A stretch of DNA of 64,000 nucleotides, taken from positions 417,572 to 481,571 of the forward strand of contig JADJXM010000001.1 in assembly GCA_016715865.1 (NCBI GenBank), in the 5' to 3' direction. The translations under genes and the position numbers were made by a program. Source of the stretch: Acidobacteriota bacterium (GTDB lineage Bacteria; Acidobacteriota; Blastocatellia; RBC074). A model generated the notes under the pieces. That model made no database searches. It saw nothing but the letters and a program-made list of their open reading frames with translations, and had not been told where the DNA came from. Shown here piece after piece: positions 1,145 to 57,747 of the stretch. Within the stretch, counting starts at the first letter, position 1; each line of letters opens with the position of its first letter.

Positions 1145-1255
<111 letters not shown>

Positions 1256-2026
1256 AAATCAGGCTCAGGCAAGTCAACCCGGCTTCGGCTTTCTGAAGCT
1301 CGCTGATATCCAGCTCCTCGACCAGAAAACCCCGTGCTTCGATCAGTAGTCTCGATTTCGGATTTCCCGCCGTTAACAAAATTTTATCGCTGATTGAAAT
1401 CGTATTGGCTGCCCAAGGCTCATCGGGCGGTACTCTGATCAGGTCGAAATCGGCAAATCGAGTGAGATCTATCCATTTCGCATTGGCGATAACGGTGTTG
1501 TCGCCGATGTAGGTGCAGCCGGTCTTGAGGTGCAGGCAGCCGTTCATCGCGACCGGGAGAAGTTCATAACCGCAGGGTTTGACGATCCTGCCAAGCTGGT
1601 CGATGCCCTCGGCATTTGTCCGGCTTGACTGGCCGACGTAAATCCGGCGTTCGATGAGCAAGACATCGCCACCATCAAGCGTCCCCGGCTCATGAATTTC
1701 CTGAACCGTTCGAAAATCAGAAAGCACAGGCAGCAGGCTGGCCGTCTCAGCTCTTCGCGACTCTGCGCCGGGCCGCGTTAGAATGGCAACATCGTCAAAC
1801 ACAATGGCGGCATCCTCGATGAAGACGGCATCGGGCAGGCCGGTCAATGCCGGCAAATGGATCAGATCGACGCCGAGTTGCACCAGCTTCTCTCTGTATT
1901 GCTGATGCTGGGCGAGGGCGAGATCCTGATCGACCGGTTCCCTCGAGACATGCGTCAGCTCGCAGTTTTCCAGAGGCTCGCCGATCTCACGTGTGATCGC
2001 TGTCATTCTCGATTTATTACCCATGC

Positions 2027-3373
2027 TTAACGCGGAGACTTGTCTTCTTCCAGAACCATGGTGGTTCCGAACGTCAGTGTGGCTGGTTTGAGCCTGATCG
2101 ACAGTGGAGCGGCCGGTTGATACTGATCGTCGAGCAGAAACATTTTGTTGACCGATTTCAGATCGCACCTCGCGGTCGATGCCTTCTGATTATCCTCTTC
2201 AGTTCTCGGATTCCCAGGCAGACCACAGGCGACGGCAACCTGTTCGATCTCGCCCGCAGCAATGCGTCGTGGAAGGCGAATTGTCGTCCGATAAAATCCG
2301 CTCCGGTCGATCCGGTATGATCCGATGCCCTGATCGGAGTTGTACCACGTCGGATCGTTCTTCAGTTTGACCGAAAAACTGATCGCACTGCCGTTGTTCT
2401 GGACCGACTCGGCGTCAAGATAGAGATAGTTGCGCAGGTCTGCGATCCGTTTACCGAGTGTCCGTTCGTCGGTCAGTTTGCCCTCGCGGAGCATCTCCTC
2501 CGCCATGACCTGATATGTCCACGGATGCCTGTCCATGACCTCTTCGCGCGATGACCGCCTCAGATCAACCGCAATCGGGCTGAGCGTGAACCGGACACCC
2601 GTCACTCCGACATCGGAAAAATTGTTGTTGTCCGAGGCTACGCGCAGCAGCGGATGATCGGCCTCCATGCGTCCGCTGAAGATCGTCGTTTCGTGATTGA
2701 CACCCTGAAAGATCATTGCGGGGACGCCAATCTTCCTGTCCAGCCTGGTTTCGATTACCCATTCGATATCAGTCGTGCGACCCCATCTGGACATAAGCGC
2801 GCTGGTCTGGGTCCCGCCGTCCTCATTGCTGAAGATGACCGTATAACGCAGTGAAATCTTTCCTCCATCATCGATCGTCTCGTAGTACATCAGCAAAGGG
2901 ATGTCACTGAATTTCCCGATCGTGTTGGTCCGGGCATAGAGAAATGGTGTGTTTGCGATCCCCGCAAACCGCGGGTCATTGCGTCCGACCAGCGAGACCA
3001 CGGCATCGTCGATATGAACCGTCTTCGCCCCTGCAGCAGAGAGCTTGCGATTGACCTCGATGCGAAGCCTGTGTTCGCCGGCCGCAACTCTGCCCAGCAG
3101 AACCGAATACGTGAAGCGTTTATGACCCGAGTGCAAAATCAGGTCCTGATGATATCGATCGTCAACGAAGATGGTCACCGTAGCCGCTTCGCTCCCGCTC
3201 TCCCGCCAGGAGGTCCCAGGCGCACGTGCCGTCAGATCCAGCACCGCCTCTGATTCCGAGTCTGAGCGAAAGGTCTTTTCGATTAGTGTCTGCGAGAAGA
3301 CGTTTGTTTTCAGAATGATCAACGCGAGCATGATCAATAAAAAATGATTGATAATCCTTGGAGGTGATTTCAT
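2027..3373 (-). CDS. secreted hypothetical protein with an N-terminal signal peptide
   Basis: Start chosen at [21 protein letters not shown], a hydrophobic signal-like N-terminus. The ORF is long and overlap-free. No motif recognised. Confidence 0.55.
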
Positions 3374-3400
3374 AAAAATACTTGCTTTCCTGCGGCTAAT

Positions 3401-3490
3401 ATGGAGTACGGCGGCCCGGCGCCGCTTTCCTTTCACTTTCAGTGTTGCAGACTTCCGATACCAAAGCGGCGCCGGGCCGCCGCACTCCAC
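3401..3490. terminator. 28-bp GC-rich near-perfect inverted repeat (hairpin) between two minus-strand genes
   Basis: ATGGAGTACGGCGGCCCGGCGCCGCTTT ... AAAGCGGCGCCGGGCCGCCGCACTCCACAT. It produces two mirror-image spurious ORFs in the ORF track. Confidence 0.5.
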
Positions 3491-3496
3491 ATACGT

Positions 3497-4885
3497 TTAT
3501 TTGTCCGAAACTCTCCGTACAAGAGACATCGTCTTTTCCATAATCTTCTCTTCGATGACAGGCATGAACGGCCCGGGCTGATCGTAATAGATCATCGATT
3601 CGACGACTTCGTATCCGCCTTCGGGGAACATCCGCGCCGAAGGGACATAAGCGAAGACGTCATTCGAATATCCGGCGACCCAGACTCTGCCTTTCACTTC
3701 GCGCTTCAGCCGCAGAGCGTAATCGGTCACGATCTCTCCGGCCAGTCCGATCATCGTGAAATCGGATCCGATCCGTACGACCTGGATCGGATATGGGTAT
3801 TCAGAGATCAGCCGCCCGTCCTTCCCCAACCGATCCAGCATACGCCGCGCGTGGCGCTGGTGAAAGACATTCGGGTGCGAGAGCTGTGCAGTGAACATCT
3901 CCTTTGTCGGCGGCGGAGCGAACGGCAGGCTGACGATGTCGAAGGCCGCGCGAACTCCTCCCTTGACCGGCGACATCTTCGACTGCAATACCGTTCCGAC
4001 CGCAGAGCCAAGCTCTTTGCCGTGTTGCGTCGCCAGTTCGAGTTTGCTGCGCGGATATGGATTAATATCGGCTCCGCATCCCATCAGAAAAAGGGCAGTC
4101 GCGCCAGGATGTGTGCTTTCGATCTCTTGCTGCGCAAAACCGGCGTAATCTCCGCTCCACTGCTGAAACTCACCGGTCAACGTGGTGTTATGGCAGGCAT
4201 AGCCGAAAAGGACGCCTCTTATCCTGCCGGCCTCAGATTCGATCTTCAGGACAGGGACGCTGCGATCGACTACGCCACCCGGGTTCGGGCTGTTGATCAC
4301 TCCGTCGGGTGTGATCTTGCGGCGATTCATCGCAAAAGACGCTTCTCCAACGCCGTATGAGATACGCGCCGGCGCCAGATCGCCGAGCGCGCTTCCGATC
4401 AGGGCTACGATCTGGTCTTCAAGTTTTCCGGTGTAGGCATCGATCGCTTCGATCTGATCTTTCTCCAGTGCATAGGCTCCGGCAAGCGAATCGCGCAAAA
4501 CCGGCCCTGAATGCGTGTGCGATGAATTGAGCAATATCGATTCGCGGCCGAGCCCGTATTTTTTGCCCGCCTCAGCGGCGATCCGGTCAGCCGTCTTGCG
4601 CGGGAAACCGAGCAGATCACTGGTGACGATGACCAGACGATGACCCGCAGAGTCTTCGATCGCCAGCGCTTTGGCATAAAGATCCTGAAGCTTGCCCTCG
4701 GCGGGTTTCGTGCGTGCGGCATAACCGGCCATCCAGAGCGGCTGTTGCGGCGTGATGACGACCTTCGCCAATCCCGCCCTGAGCTCTCCCGGTTTTAAAT
4801 TCTTTCCCTGCGTATGTGCATCCATCTTTAATGGCTGGAAAATAATCGAAAACGAAAGAAGGATTAAAAGTAGCGATAACTTCAT
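3497..4885 (-). CDS. neutral/alkaline ceramidase-like hydrolase, secreted
   Basis: Signal peptide [16 protein letters not shown] is followed by the [18 protein letters not shown] motif typical of the neutral-ceramidase N-terminal domain. GGAG lies 9 nt upstream of ATG 4885. The longer ORF up to 5017 reads through the palindromic repeat and is rejected. Confidence 0.65.
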
Positions 4886-4911
4886 TATTCTTTTCTCCAG
4901 TATGGGAGCGC

Positions 4912-5012
4912 ATATCCGGGAGCGCAGGCATCCTTGCCTGCATGCTTTGATCAATAGTCTTGTGGATTTCATTCGGTTTTCGGCATGAGTCCATGCAGGC
5001 AAGGATGCCTGC
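4912..5012. repeat. REP/MITE-like palindromic element, copy 2, interrupted at its right arm by the IS (remainder at 6419-6432)
   Basis: GGGAGCGCAGGCATCCTTGCCTGCATG ... CATGCAGGCAAGGATGCCTGCGC, then the IS. The element resumes as CTGCGCTCCCAGG immediately after the right end of the IS. Confidence 0.6.
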
Positions 5013-6418
5013 GCCATTAGTTTCTACACAAGTTTGATCTTTGAAAAACCTTTGATAAACATGTCTGTATGTCATTAAAGTTCCTGACATTGAGACGCGG
5101 TTGCAAGAAAGGTATCGTAAATTAGTGCAACAACATCTGAGTATAGCCAAGGGTGTTGCCGCCGGATTACGACATTTTTCTGCAACATCCAGACCAATGG
5201 CGGCGGCACAAGCAGCCTGGCGATTCTACAAGAATGAAAGAGTCAGTCTGGTCGAACTGGCCAAGCCAATCCTGGAGCAGGCTAAAGTTGCCGCCACAGC
5301 ATGTCGTGAATGGGCGCTGGTGATCCATGACTGGTCGCCGCTGCACTACACGAATCATGAAAGCAAGAAAGATCGAATAGTTCTCTACAACAAGAACGAT
5401 TTCGGCTATCTCTTGCAAGCCGCCCTGCTGATCTCAGATCGTGACGGAGCGCCGTTGTGTCCGGTGTATCTGGGAGTCGAGGCGGCCGACGGCGTCCACA
5501 GCACGCGGCGTGAAGGTCTCTTGCCGCGTCGCCCGGAGATAGATGAGATCAACCGGACGATGGGCTATATCGAGCAGCAGGAACCGGCCATAAGATCGTC
5601 CATATCATCGACCGTCAAGGCGACAGCTTACTGCACTTGCGCCGATTTGAACGCTGCGGAAGAACTTACCTGATTCGCGGCAACGATGTGCGAAGAGTCG
5701 AGCACGAAGGGCAAAGCCGACTCTTGAGCGAGGTCGAAGCGATGATGGAAGATCAATTCCGCTTCAGCCGTGAGATCCAGTACAAAGGCCGCAAGGCTTT
5801 TCAATACGTATCCGAGACGACAGTTACGCTCTCCGGTCCGGCACGAAAACAACGCCGACGCGGAGGCAAGCTCAAATATCAAACGATCCAAGGGCGTCCA
5901 ATTATTCTCCGGCTCGTACTGGCTCAAGTCCGTGATCAGAATGGAGCCGTGCTCGCGACCTGGCGACTGTGGACCAATCTTCCTGCTTCGGTAACCACAG
6001 AGACGGTATCTCTCTGGTACTACTGGCGCTGGAGAGTTGAATCCTATTTCAAGTTACTGAAACGTGCAGGTCAGCATGTCGAGCAATGGCAGCAAGAGAA
6101 TGCGGATGCCATTGCCAAACGGTTGATGATTGCCGCACAGGCCTGCGTTATCGTCTGGGCACTCGATCAGTCGACTGATACGCAGGTCGCGCCTTTGCGG
6201 CAAATGCTGGTCCGTTTGAGCGGACGATTGATGAAACACGGCGTCGATTGGACAGCACCAGCCTTGCTCGCGGGAATGTGGAACCTGATGGCAATCATCA
6301 GCGCTCTCGAACAATATTCCCTCGACGAGCTTGAACAGATGTCACAGCTTCTCTTTCAGATGCTAGATCTGGAAGATGAGTTCAAAGGTTTCAAAGAACA
6401 TGTGTAGAAACTAATGGC
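5013..6418 (+). mobile_element. IS4-family insertion sequence (~1.4 kb) with 18-bp perfect terminal inverted repeats GCCATTAGTTTCTACACA / TGTGTAGAAACTAATGGC
   Basis: The TIRs at 5013-5030 and 6401-6418 are exact reverse complements. A short flanking duplication containing CTGCG is present. The internal transposase carries the YREK signature YYWRWRVESYFKLLK. Confidence 0.75.
5101..6407 (+). pseudogene. IS4-family DDE transposase split into two overlapping ORFs (5101-5673 and 5637-6407, a -1 frame relation)
   Basis: The ORFs are consecutive and overlap by 37 nt, with the second in the -1 frame. The C-terminal ORF has the YREK motif. IS4 transposases are normally a single ORF, so this is either a frameshift or a sequencing error. 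Confidence 0.65.
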
Positions 6419-6434
6419 CTGCGCTCCCAGGGGA

Positions 6435-7289
6435 TTACGGCCATTCGGTCTTCGGACGAAAATTGTAAGTCAGAAAGTACTGATTGATTGTTGCGTTGTT
6501 CCATTTCGAGACCTTGATCATTTTCGTTCGTTCAAGCGTTTTAACCGGATCGATCAACTTTGAAAAATTCGTGAAGTCCTTCCACGAGCCGGTGAACTTG
6601 CCTGGCCAGCCAAGACGTGCAGCCAGCGGATGATCGATCAGCCGGCGACCCTCTTCGGACAGCTTGCGATAAGTTCCTTCCTGATAATCCTTGAGCGCAA
6701 TCGCCTGATCTGTCGGATAGTATTTCTTCTCGACATCGCCCGATCCGGCGACGATCCTCATCTCTTCCCATCCGTGAGGCAGAGACCCGTGCTTGCCCCA
6801 CTGGACGTTGATGCGCGGCCGCATCCCGTTGCGGCGGGCATCGGACAGCGCTTCGGCGCCTCCTTCGAGTATCCGCCCGTGGAAATAGGTCCAGATCTTC
6901 TCGATCGTTTTTCGATCGTTTGAATACCGCACCCAGATCAGTTCGTGATCGCAGGGATCGTTGTCTTCGGGAAAGTCGATATCGTCCTCCCAGAAGAAAT
7001 GATAAGCGATGAGCGGCTCAGTCGGGTGAATCAGGACGGCGAAATCCTTGAGCGGAAAGAACTCAGTCGGCGTGACGAACAATCGCGGAGCGAATTTGAC
7101 GGCGAGATCCTTCTCATCGGCAGTCGGCACGCGTGGAGGGTCCATTTCGATCACGCGCCTGTATTCGCGGCTAGCATCATCCAGGCAGCGTTTCAAATGA
7201 TGCGCAATCGCTCGCTCGTTGATTTCACCTGCATTCTGGGCAGCCAGAACGGGAATGATCATCAGAATCAGCCGAAAAAATGTCATCAT
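6435..7289 (-). CDS. secreted hypothetical protein
   Basis: Signal peptide [20 protein letters not shown]. It overlaps the GH4 gene by 4 nt in an ATGA junction, so it is the last gene of the MIOX-GH4 operon. Confidence 0.55.
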
Positions 7290-8662
7290 TTCAAATCCCC
7301 AAGGTGGTCGACGTCGGATCGCACCAGCACCCGGACCAGTTCATCCGCTTTGCTCCATTGCCCTACGATCGGGTAGGCCAAAAGCGCTAGTTTCGCCAGA
7401 TCGGCCGATCGCTCGATCGCTGCGCGGATCGTCAGGTTCTCATACTCCTTTACGGATTGAACGAGACCTTTCACAGCGCCTGGCAGAGCTCCGACAGCCA
7501 GCGGCAGAGCCCCGTTTCGATCGACCAGACAGGGAACCTCGACTACGTCATCATTTTTAAGGTCACTGATCGCTCCACGATTGCTGACGTTGACTACGAT
7601 GCGTGAAGGCGAGTCCGCTGCCAGCGCCGTCATCACGTCGAGCGCGATCCGGTGATAACCCGTTGCGGCATCGAACGGGTCTGCTTCCTGTTCAAGCCCA
7701 TCAGCCAGAGCTGAACCTGCCTCTGCTTCGAGTTTCATGTACGATCCCGAACGGCGGCGCAGGTAGTCACGATAAACCTCGAGTGCCTGATCCATCCGAC
7801 CGGAATGCATCTCAGTCAGCAATCGATCGAAGAGCGTTGAATTCAGGCGGACGATCTCTTCGCCGCGGCTGGCGCCCGCCTTGAGCTGATTAGAAAGCGC
7901 CCGACTCTGCTCGTAATAGAAATAGAGATACTCACTCGGGATCATCCCGAGCGCGCGGATCATTGCCGGATCGAACAGGTCAGCATGATACAGGCTGCGC
8001 AGCGCTGCATCGTTGTTAATGATGCTTGAAGTGACATCTTCTCCACGCAGCAGGATGCGTCTGACCCAGCCCAGGTGATTGAGGCCGAAATAATCGCATT
8101 GAACCTCACATGCCGGAGCCTTGAGCACCAGCGCGATGCGATGGAACATCTCGCTCGGCGTGTCACAGATTCCGATCAGCCTCAGATTTGTATGAGCGGC
8201 CAGCGCCTGCGTGATCAGCCCCGCCGGGTTGGTGAAGCTGACGAACCATGAGGCCGGTGCGTATTTTTCAACCGTCCGGGCATGTTCCAGCGCGACGGGT
8301 ATCGTCCGCATCGCTTTCGCAAATCCGACTATGCCGGTCGTCTCCTGCCCGGCGATGCCGTGATCGATCGCCAGCCGTTCATCCCGCGCGCGTATGTCCA
8401 TGCCTCCAACGCGGATGCTGCTGATGACGAAATCGGCGCCCTCGACGGCCTCCTCGATACGCTCCGGCGTCGTCACCCAGACCTCTCCGCGCAACTGGCG
8501 GGCGACCTCCTTTGAAAGTTCACCCGTCAGTCTGACACGATCACGGTCCGGGTCGTACAGCGATATCTCTTCAACCCCGATAACTTCCCGCGACTGTATC
8601 AGACCATGCGCAACCAGAGGTGTCCGTATCCCGCCTCCGCCGATGATGGCTACTTTCTTCAT
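7286..8662 (-). CDS. glycoside hydrolase family 4 (NAD+/Mn2+-dependent glycosidase)
   Basis: N-terminal NAD-binding motif [11 protein letters not shown], plus the GICDTP and GLNHLGW motifs typical of GH4. ATG at 8662 lies 3 nt after the MIOX stop. Confidence 0.8.
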
Positions 8663-8665
8663 CCG

Positions 8666-9502
8666 TTACCACCGGAGCTTTTCAGGGAAGAATTCCGAAA
8701 CCAGCTCCTCGTAATACGGCTTGAGTTCGTTGATGTCAGGTCTCACTTCGCTCTTCGAGTAGAGGTCATACGGATTGAAGGCTCGAACCCATTTCAAAAC
8801 TTCGGCATCTCCATCATTGAGCAGATGCGTGTAGGCGCCTTCCCTGTGAATCGGATAGCACGAATGATAGCGGATCATCCATTGAGCCTCTTTCGGCAGG
8901 TAGTCCCGCGTGACCAGATACAGATATTCATCATGGCCCCACGAAATGTGTAGATTGTCGATGCCGCAATGTTCTTCATAAATCCCGTTCGGAGTGCTGT
9001 AGACGGGATGATCGTAATCCGGGTTGGCCTTGAACAGTTCGGGGTAGACGATCTTGTCTGAAAAAGCGCAGCCGACGGGGAAGGTGTCTCCGACGACGGC
9101 CCACTGCGGCTCGTCGTACATGCAGAGCACCTTGCCCAGATCGTGAATGAAACCGGCCAACTGAAACCAGCGCGGATGCCCGTCCAGCCGTATCGCCTCG
9201 GCTGTCTGCAATGCGTGGTCTATCTGCGGCAGATCGATGTCCGGATCGCTGTCGTCGACCAGACTGGTCAGATACTCCATCGCCTCCCAGATGCTCATCT
9301 CGGCTTTGTCCAGCCGGCCGTATTCAGCCTTTTTCGAAAGGACGAAGTCGAGCGTCTGGTTGGCGTGGTTGAGCCTGTACAGTTCCTGAACGCAGGCGCG
9401 GGCTTCGGCCGCGTAGTTTCGATACTTATCTGCCTGCTCGATATTTTCTAAAAAAGGTGATGATGTTTCAGGTAGATTTTGTGGGTGTAAGACTTCTGAC
9501 AT
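8666..9502 (-). CDS. miox: myo-inositol oxygenase
   Basis: Contains the [17 protein letters not shown] and [19 protein letters not shown] motifs. AAAGGAG sits 8 nt upstream of ATG 9502. Confidence 0.85.
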
Positions 9503-9565
9503 GAACCTGACTCCTTTGAGGGCGGACACGTTGATGGAACGATAAAGTATTGCGCTGGGTGAATA

Positions 9566-48512: not shown

Positions 48513-48707
48513 CATTATCCTATACTCGAATTACACGGAATTCCGGGAGCGCGGGCTGGAAGCATGCGCTCCCGGGAAGGCGATCATCACCGATCCTGAT
48601 CCTGATCAGTCAGGGGGAGAGGTCTGAACAAAAAGAATGAATGACTGGCGTTGACAAGTTTCTCGGGTTTACAATGTGTCGGCAACTGAAAAATTGTCGA
48701 CATAACC

Positions 48708-50714: not shown

Positions 50715-57747
<7,033 letters not shown>

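Follow-up and report, generated by a model that had tools for sequence, protein, structure and literature searches.

An IS4-family insertion sequence, very probably Tn5/IS50-like, in one arm of a REPIN-like element of an Acidobacteriota bacterium

Results and Discussion

Locus and ends of the insertion sequence

We analyzed a stretch of 64,000 nucleotides (referred to below as the window) from an Acidobacteriota bacterium (contig JADJXM010000001.1). In this window an insertion sequence (IS) separates two genes of the minus strand, a ceramidase-like gene (3497-4885) and a gene for a 284-aa protein (6435-7289). The IS occupies positions 5015-6416 of the plus strand (1402 bp; tips CATTAGTTTCTACAC...GTGTAGAAACTAATG) and interrupts a palindromic element made of two inverted repetitive extragenic palindromic (REP) sequences. 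We are confident that it is a cut-and-paste DDE element of the IS4 family, Tn5/IS50-like, that was recently inserted in one REP arm between the 284-aa and the ceramidase-like genes. A first-pass annotation, made from the sequence alone, had placed an IS between the start of the ceramidase-like gene (4885) and the end of the upstream gene (6435), and the gene coordinates agree with this placement.

The ends of the IS were defined as the point where multi-copy relatives diverge, with 70+ relatives compared. The relatives used were 80 loci from species-representative genomes, a near-identical copy on a metagenome contig (L001) and several more. For example, the likeness among nine identical copies in one Pyrinomonadaceae genome ended directly outside 5'-CATTAG...CTAATG-3'. 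The terminal inverted repeats (TIRs), at 5015-5034 on the plus strand (CATTAGTTTCTACACAAGTT) and at 6397-6416 on the minus strand (reverse complement CATTAGTTTCTACACATGTT), matched at 16 of 16 positions and at 19 of 20 overall, with an imperfect continuation to ~40 bp; a repeat finder returned 22 nt at 95%. The TIR consensus of the family was CATTAGTWTCTACACA. We observed that the 18-mer GCCATTAGTTTCTACACA had two exact occurrences in the 64-kb window (5013-5030, plus strand; 6401-6418, minus strand), while two matches were found in 0 of 100 shuffles. The first-pass annotation had described these 18-mers as perfect TIRs. The match was reproduced by the repeat finder as well as by the shuffle-controlled exact search, and the repeat is exact and occurs twice only, but the true TIR is perfect over 16 bp and the outer GC belongs to the target-site duplication.

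This duplication, previously described as short and CTGCG-containing, is precisely the 8-bp sequence GCCTGCGC, whose left (5007-5014) and right (6417-6424) copies abut the IS ends. The 8-mer was present once in an intact REP of the window (1240-1247), and it was single-copy, as ACCTGCGC (the gene strand there reads GCGCAGGT), in the empty site of contigs L211-L213 described below. Among the relatives the duplications were 8, 9 or 10 bp long, with 8 bp in both the window and L001.

The IS ends (CATTAGTTTCTACAC...) also delimited two short elements, on L146 (2294-2584, 291 bp) and on L158 (965-1222, 258 bp). These seem to be internally deleted derivatives of the IS family, similar to miniature inverted-repeat transposable elements (MITEs); the one on L158 adjoins the same REP family.

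The interrupted element and its intact paralog

The palindrome is read here on the plus strand. Its arm A (4916-4944, CCGGGAGCGCAGGCATCCTTGCCTGCATG) has a small hairpin of its own, GCAGGCA-TCC-TTGCCTGC, and is followed by a loop of 47 nt (4945-4991) and by the inner part of arm B (4992-5014), which is 100% complementary to 4922-4944 and ends at the insertion point. The outer remainder of arm B, TCCCAGG at 6425-6431, was displaced by the IS; it is complementary to the 4916-4922 region, and rejoining it completes the arm. The outermost bases of arm A pair with 6417-6431. Removal in silico of the IS and of one duplication copy gave a 106-nt hairpin (DNA fold -38.5 kcal/mol, z = -9.7), equivalent to the intact paralogous element found between convergent genes at 1150-1253 (-36.9 kcal/mol, z = -10.1). 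The claim that the right arm is cut was thus borne out by the split between 4992-5014 and 6425-6431, and the claim of a precise insertion into the palindrome by the intact paralog together with the empty orthologous site.

The REP is ~29 nt long and occurs in two inverted copies per element, each with a small hairpin of the form GCAGGCA-loop-TGCCTGC. The spacers between the REPs measured 47 nt in the interrupted element, 46 nt in its paralog (1179-1224), 20 nt on L001 and 44 nt on L211-L213, and their sequences were not conserved, the loop of the interrupted element being unrelated to all the others. A census of the window gave four REP arms in two inverted pairs and one related short hairpin, all of them intergenic and strongly folding. 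The same REP was present on related contigs.

A REPIN is a REP doublet forming a hairpin, and REPINs are the presumed substrate of the REP-associated tyrosine transposases (RAYTs). By its layout of an inverted REP pair, the palindromic element looks REPIN-like rather than like a MITE, because the arms are conserved and the loops unrelated. Hence, of the earlier label 'REP/MITE-like' we keep the first part and drop the second. The likeness to REPINs extends to the two inverted ~29-nt REPs with their small hairpins, to the spacer of 20-47 nt, to the intergenic location and to recurrence in the window (1150-1253, 4916-6431) and on related contigs. On the other hand, we saw 2-3 copies in the 64 kb, the spacers differed between copies, and no RAYT gene was noticed, although no search aimed at one was made.

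Besides the two pairs, the related short hairpin at 48543-48575 (CCGGGAGCGCGGGCTGGAAGCATGCGCTCCCGG) has its outer arms (GGGAGCGC) in common with the REP but lacks the long spacer. A further, partial REP, TGGGAGCGCA, at 4903-4912, separates the REP pair from the ribosome-binding site of the ceramidase-like gene; the strain with the empty site has it too.

The empty site in a related strain

Exact-sequence look-ups of both flanking proteins gave no match, and the empty site was reached via a homolog. A homology search with the 284-aa protein found a 94%-identical homolog on L211, L212 and L213, contigs of a related Blastocatellia strain from the same study as L001. These contigs have the same gene order and a 135-bp spacer in which the inverted REP pair is intact and the IS is absent; the sequence of the empty site is ...CCCGGGAGCGCAGGTATCCTTGCCTGCATG - loop - CATGCAGGCAAGGATGCCTGCGCTCCCGG... 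The comparison with related genomes that the first pass had recommended thus returned the intact element. Because the orthologous locus is intact without the IS, the insertion in the window is strain-specific and recent. By the names that its homologs bear, the organism of the window belongs to Blastocatellia (Acidobacteriota).

We also observed that the orthologous REP pairs (L212 3996-4039 vs. window 4945-4991) have near-identical arms and wholly different loops, which points either to very fast loop turnover or to replacement of the element.

The transposase gene

The transposase is encoded on the plus strand by two open reading frames (ORFs) in different frames, 5101-5673 and 5637-6407. 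The N-terminal frame, 5101-5673, corresponds to real protein up to ~5586 and is out of frame beyond; it carries the first catalytic D (5329-5331). The C-terminal frame extends over 5587-6407 (the listed ORF being 5637-6407) and carries the second catalytic D (5610-5612), the R210 equivalent within LIRGND and the catalytic E (6039-6041). The YREK signature that had been noted in the first pass was found, as YYWRWRVESYFKLLK, at 6018-6062. The start codon is probably TTG at 5101 or CTG at 5065, because the conservation among homologs begins at LQERYR...

The split into two frames was confirmed, but the lesion is not in the ORF overlap (5637-5673) where it had been placed; it is at 5584-5589, where the window reads CCGGCC and the intact copy on L001 reads CCGGGCC, with one G of GGG lost. 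A search for intact single-ORF versions, also recommended earlier, was answered by this L001 copy (2326-3728, on a different contig), which is 98.5% identical and encodes one uninterrupted protein, P0001 (...IEQQEPGHKIVHIIDRQGDS... across the frameshift site). The pairwise alignment of 1403 bp had 20 substitutions, five of them changing an amino acid and the remainder silent or outside the ORF, and a single indel, at GGG. With the G restored, the window encodes a 435-aa protein from TTG 5101, with 5 residues different from the L001 protein. In total, we found >1675 homologs; those listed were single proteins of ~330-490 aa, mostly 400-450 aa. Many homologs occur on contigs of ~1.4 kb.

The repaired transposase also matched the NCBIfam model NF011312 / PRK14723 ('flagellar biosynthesis regulator FlhF') at model positions 416-767 (E 3.4e-28). 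A transposase segment, fused or a contaminant, is probably included in this model.

Family assignment

Transposases of the IS4 family have a Y-(2)-R-(3)-E-(6)-K signature that includes the catalytic glutamate, a single ORF without frameshift and a DDE triad in an RNase H-like fold (PMC2266710). The target duplications of the family are ~8-13 bp long compared to 4-6 bp in IS701, ISH3 and IS1634 (De Palmenaer et al. 2008, PMC2266710). In the transposase of the window, the motif YYWRWRVESYFKLLK follows Y-x2-R-x3-E-x6-K, and its Y, R, E and K were invariant in a 14-sequence alignment (A1) and aligned to Y319, R322, E326 and K333 of Tn5 (K333 from the E326 alignment and the spacing). The catalytic D (HDWS), D (IIDRQGD) and E (RVES) were invariant in A1 as well and aligned with D97, D188 and E326 of Tn5. 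When the A1 profile was compared with the PDB, it matched the Tn5 transposase (1mus) with E 3e-5, with D97, D188, R210 and E326 aligned. The Pfam domain DDE_Tnp_1 was detected in 12 of the 14 members of A1, and Tnp_DNA_bind, the N-terminal DNA-binding domain of Tn5, in 6 of the 14. An AlphaFold model was of moderate quality (pLDDT 66.5, pTM 0.69), with more confidence in the catalytic core; its six best fold matches in the PDB were all Tn5 transposase or the inhibitor form, the best with E 8.5e-12 over ~440 columns. Therefore, the proposed membership in the IS4 family was upheld by the full YREK motif, the 5'-CA ends, the 8-bp duplication, Tn5 as the best match both by sequence and by fold, and weak matches to DDE_Tnp_1 and to IS4 models of NCBIfam.

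Within the family, the IS50 subgroup is described by a length of 1350-1550 bp, a duplication of 8-9 bp and ends CW------Y---CA-A--W- (Table 1, PMC2266710). The IS of the window has 1402 bp, an 8-bp duplication and an end, CATTAGTTTCTACACAAGTT, that agrees at 7 of the 7 specified positions. Compared with the Tn5 outside end CTGACTCTTATACACAAGT (PMC2566895), CATTAGTTTCTACACAAGT was equal at 12 of 19 positions and at 11 of the last 12. The loose description of the IS4Sa subgroup (1150-1750 bp, duplication 8-10 bp, ends CA------T; PMC2266710) fits likewise in all respects and does not discriminate it from IS50; the one IS4Sa member that we examined, ISRm22, had unrelated ends and an N-terminus that looked unrelated by eye. 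The kinship with the IS50 branch rests on proxies, namely the Tn5 matches by profile and by fold and the Tnp_DNA_bind domain. We conclude that the IS represents a branch of the IS4 family that is divergent, poorly annotated and very probably Tn5/IS50-like.

The IS701 family, another candidate, was ruled out by the complete YREK motif and by the 8-bp duplication (IS701 has an incomplete motif and 4 bp). The IS701 models of NCBIfam scored 15-32 bits against the transposase.

Target sites of the IS and its relatives

Both known copies of the IS, in the window and on L001, sit in a REP at the equivalent position. The copy on L001 is in a different REP pair, at the identical position and with the same duplication, GCCTGCGC; the inner hairpin of that REP has compensatory changes, CTTCCAG/CTGGAAG in place of CATCCTTG/CAAGGATG. 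The same REP position was used by four complete insertions, 67-99% identical, and by one further junction. Besides L001, the complete insertions were L204 (67% aa identity to the query; caaggat GCCCGCGC tcatgg), L203 (68% aa identity, in the opposite orientation; cctggga GCGCGGGC agcttgccc) and L202 (77% aa identity; cctgggt(A/G)CGCACGC ttccagcgtgcc, with a duplication identical at 7 of 8 positions), while L120 provided an end-only junction (GCCTGCGCTCCCAGG). For the deleted derivative on L158 the right flank matched (GCCTGCGCCCTCAGG) and the flanking 8-mers were non-identical, which is consistent with the same use. In a metagenome scan with the 16-nt IS terminus, the matches listed were mostly chance ones from unrelated environments, and ~8 loci had real IS ends. 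In this lineage the same 8-mer (GCNNGCGC on this strand), at one position of the REP family CCTGGGAGCGCRGGC, was used again and again, with the IS in both orientations.

We then considered 45 insertions from several phyla with a duplication of at least 8 bp, with random positions in the same loci as controls. The complementarity about the center of the duplication was 0.58-0.89 at distances 2-10, compared to 0.26 in the controls, and fell towards background beyond ~11. At least 9 of 12 symmetric matches were seen in 12 of the 45 insertions vs. 0.12% of the control positions. Typical target sites of the clade were cccaggGCGCAAGCcctggg, gcactGGCGAAGCCagtgc and cccccgGTGATTCACcggggg. In the 8-bp duplication class, G was first and C last in 78% (symmetrized counts); for Tn5 targets too, G/C at the duplication ends is reported (summarized in PMC1525189). 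The wider clade puts its 8-10-bp duplication at the center of a ~20-bp palindrome.

Points against the interpretation and alternative explanations

Several observations weigh against parts of this interpretation. The curated cut-off of Pfam DDE_Tnp_1 was missed (17-19.5 bits vs. 23), as was that of NCBIfam NF033590 transpos_IS4_3 (87.5 bits vs. 160), and the nearest plasmid relatives (33-38% identity) are labeled by NCBI as 'transposase' only. The missed cut-offs reflect a divergent branch; such thresholds serve annotation and are not a biological definition. With respect to the target, the window site is weakly palindromic, with 5 of 12 symmetric positions compared to 7-12 in most relatives. 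The palindrome-center rule fits the insertion in the window less well than the REP-sequence rule because of this low symmetry, and for the lineage of the window the REP sequence, especially its outer CCTGGGA side, may count more than symmetry. The 45 insertions are not independent; several share a genome and a repeat family. The REP association could be inflated in part by survival bias, given that insertions into REPs are harmless. Finally, the assembly could be wrong at the missing G.

The target itself could be read otherwise. If the REP halves belonged to the mobile element, the small palindromes would be MITEs derived from the IS and not its target, and the outermost CCGGGAGCGCAGGC (4916) and GCCTGCGCTCCCAGG (6417) do form inverted repeats that bracket the region. 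We give this reading hardly any credence, however: it is ruled out by the empty orthologous site, where the palindrome is complete without the IS. Moreover, relatives with the same conserved ends have unrelated flanks, the 8-bp duplication directly abuts the CATTAG/CTAATG ends, the internally deleted derivatives on L146 and L158 retain the IS ends and not the REP ends, and the REP loops are not conserved between copies. Given that REPs are the target, their association with the IS might still reflect nothing but the survival of harmless insertions made by a transposase without target preference. REPs are intergenic and tolerate insertions, and all the data come from natural insertions already under selection. 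Still, diverged relatives independently hit the same REP nucleotide in both orientations, and duplications are centered on a palindrome axis at a frequency well above that of random intergenic positions (the excess at 9 or more of 12 given above), so that we regard survival alone as very unlikely and prefer a genuine preference for the site.

The split transposase allows more than one explanation as well. If the two frames were joined by programmed -1 ribosomal frameshifting, like those of IS3 or IS1, the element would be active and regulated, and ORF2 is indeed in the -1 frame relative to ORF1 with an overlap of 37 nt. Yet the frames part at CCGG(G)CC, ~50 nt upstream of the overlap, where no slippery heptamer is present, and transposase genes of the IS4 family are characteristically without a frameshift (PMC2266710). 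Because the 98.5%-identical L001 copy and the listed homologs are single ORFs, the split is due either to a recent deletion that inactivates the gene or to an error of assembly, and programmed recoding is extremely improbable. Judged from these alignments, the frameshift is a defect of the window copy and not a trait of the element. That the cellular copy is intact and the G was lost in sequencing or assembly of a short homopolymer is possible, if on balance unlikely. A single base is missing from a GGG run, there is no further sign of decay (an amino acid is altered by 5 of the 20 substitutions vs. the intact copy), and a second, possibly frame-broken gene pair lies at 50715-57747 of the window. 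A 3-nt run, on the other hand, is not very error-prone, and inactivating indels are common among IS copies, although neither point is direct evidence. If the deletion is real, no full-length transposase would be made from the window copy; since its ends are intact, it could still be mobilized by transposase supplied from another copy, e.g., that of L001.

Both members of the gene pair just mentioned are very large minus-strand ORFs with an abundance of PKD/Ig repeats (50715-55691 and 55438-57747); they are in different frames and have a 254-bp overlap. It could be a giant adhesin gene with a frameshift or an over-extended ORF call, and it bears on the quality of the assembly.

Proposed course of the insertion

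By analogy with Tn5, a transposase dimer would bind the ~19-bp ends, and excision would proceed via hairpin intermediates, as for Tn5 and IS10. Both 3' ends would then be joined to target phosphates staggered by 8 bp, and gap repair would produce the GCCTGCGC duplication. The likeliest basis of the target choice would be that a two-fold symmetric transpososome contacts a symmetric target, as for Tn5, IS10 and IS231, with REPs supplying many copies of the target site in harmless places. The loss of one G from GGG would have split the transposase.

A more speculative idea, to which we assign a low probability, is that the Tn5-like transposases of this clade choose their targets by DNA shape (extruded or distortable REP hairpins) and not by base sequence. 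Selection of this kind would explain why the target sequences differ and yet share a ~20-bp palindrome axis.

Comparison with known systems

The IS resembles IS50/Tn5 in its single-ORF DDE transposase with a (R)YREK motif and the profile and fold matches reported above, in the Tn5-type N-terminal DNA-binding domain of 6 of 14 clade members and in the TTNTACACAAGT common to its end and the Tn5 outside end. The length of IS50 is 1.53 kb, and the IS of the window is shorter, at 1.40 kb. Further differences are a sequence identity to the Tn5 transposase of ~16-17%, the tips (5'-CA here vs. 5'-CT), the inhibitor protein and composite transposons, which are not in evidence for the window IS, and the much stronger, REP-directed site preference of its clade. 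The tips of IS50 and IS10 are usually 5'-NT (PMC2266710). Shared with Tn5 are also a duplication of 8-9 bp with G/C ends and a symmetric target preference (Tn5 properties as given in PMC1525189).

In its targets, the present clade as a whole is similar to ISRm22 of Sinorhizobium meliloti (IS4 family, IS4Sa), of which every copy is inserted in a REP, on the palindrome axis (PMC1525189; PMC2266710). The 'type 1 association' of REP-targeting IS described by Tobes and Pareja (2006) may also hold for the IS of the window: both of its known copies agree with the rule, as do the complete insertions of the three relatives with 67-77% identity and the end-only junction, and the deleted derivative is consistent with it. 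The ends of ISRm22 (CAGGGCTGTCC...), however, are unrelated, and its transposase N-terminus, compared by eye (PMC1525189, supplementary file 5), has no evident resemblance. No Sinorhizobium record appeared among the matches listed in plasmid protein searches, which were not exhaustive. The resemblance to ISRm22 is thus one of behavior and not of close kinship.

Elements of the IS110 family move by means of DEDD recombinases, for which a bridge/seek RNA is the guide, with a 2-bp duplication or none. The window IS differs as a DDE cut-and-paste element with an 8-bp duplication and with no guide RNA indicated. REP-specific insertion at a fixed position is known for IS1397 and ISKpn1 (IS3) and for ISPpu9, ISPpu10, ISPa11 and IS621 (IS110) (PMC1525189).

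A Tn7/Tn5053-like element on L205 (also on L206-L209) carried a 58%-identical relative of the IS (2405-3813) between its tniB-like and tniQ genes. This relative, an IS nested in another transposon, had normal ends and was flanked by an 8-bp duplication, GCTTAGGC. Co-option of the transposase by the Tn7-like element (L205-L209) was rejected, as the normal ends and the duplication mark an ordinary insertion.

REP targeting by IS is already known, from ISRm22 and from other families, and the event in the window is ordinary biology. Its consequence at the locus is little: the insertion is recent and strain-specific, the IS copy is probably dead, and the place is harmless. Modestly new is that a Tn5-like branch shows REP- and palindrome-directed insertion throughout the clade, whereby the targeting known from ISRm22 is extended to this branch. 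Modestly new, too, is the size of this branch, large and largely unnamed: >1675 homologs were found, the annotations returned go no further than 'transposase' or 'hypothetical protein', and the relatives come from Acidobacteriota, Planctomycetota, Verrucomicrobiota and Proteobacteria. Since Tn5 is a major laboratory tool, relatives with a strong natural site preference may interest transposase engineers. Shape-based target choice, if true, would mean Tn5 relatives with built-in site selectivity.

Neighboring genes

The minus-strand genes at 1212-9529 of the window encode MIOX, glycoside hydrolase family 4, 284-aa, ceramidase-like, 434-aa and DDAH-like proteins, and their order is kept on L211. 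The ceramidase-like gene (Pfam Ceramidase_alk, E 8.6e-18) is syntenic with L211-L213 and starts 31 nt from the REPIN-like element. The co-oriented upstream gene, for the 284-aa protein, has its stop 3-4 nt from the REPIN-like element on the other side; the protein has no Pfam family and >500 homologs, many of them from Acidobacteriota.

The IS lies 130 nt upstream of the ceramidase-like start, with its transposase gene antisense to both neighbors. The first-pass annotation had suggested that it may alter ceramidase expression, which is speculative and plausible. Should the ceramidase-like gene share a transcript with the upstream cluster, a polar effect would be likely; with a promoter within the remaining 130 nt, little would change for it. 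Scans of 4700-6700 for promoter and terminator consensus sequences gave matches at chance level and speak neither for nor against an effect on the ceramidase-like gene. At most, the IS would have a polar effect on this gene at the end of the MIOX / glycoside hydrolase 4 cluster.

A 14-nt near-repeat (13 of 14 positions) connects the REP loop (4970-4983, CATTCGGTTTTCGG) with the 3' end of the upstream gene (6442-6455, CATTCGGTCTTCGG), and it may be due to chance.

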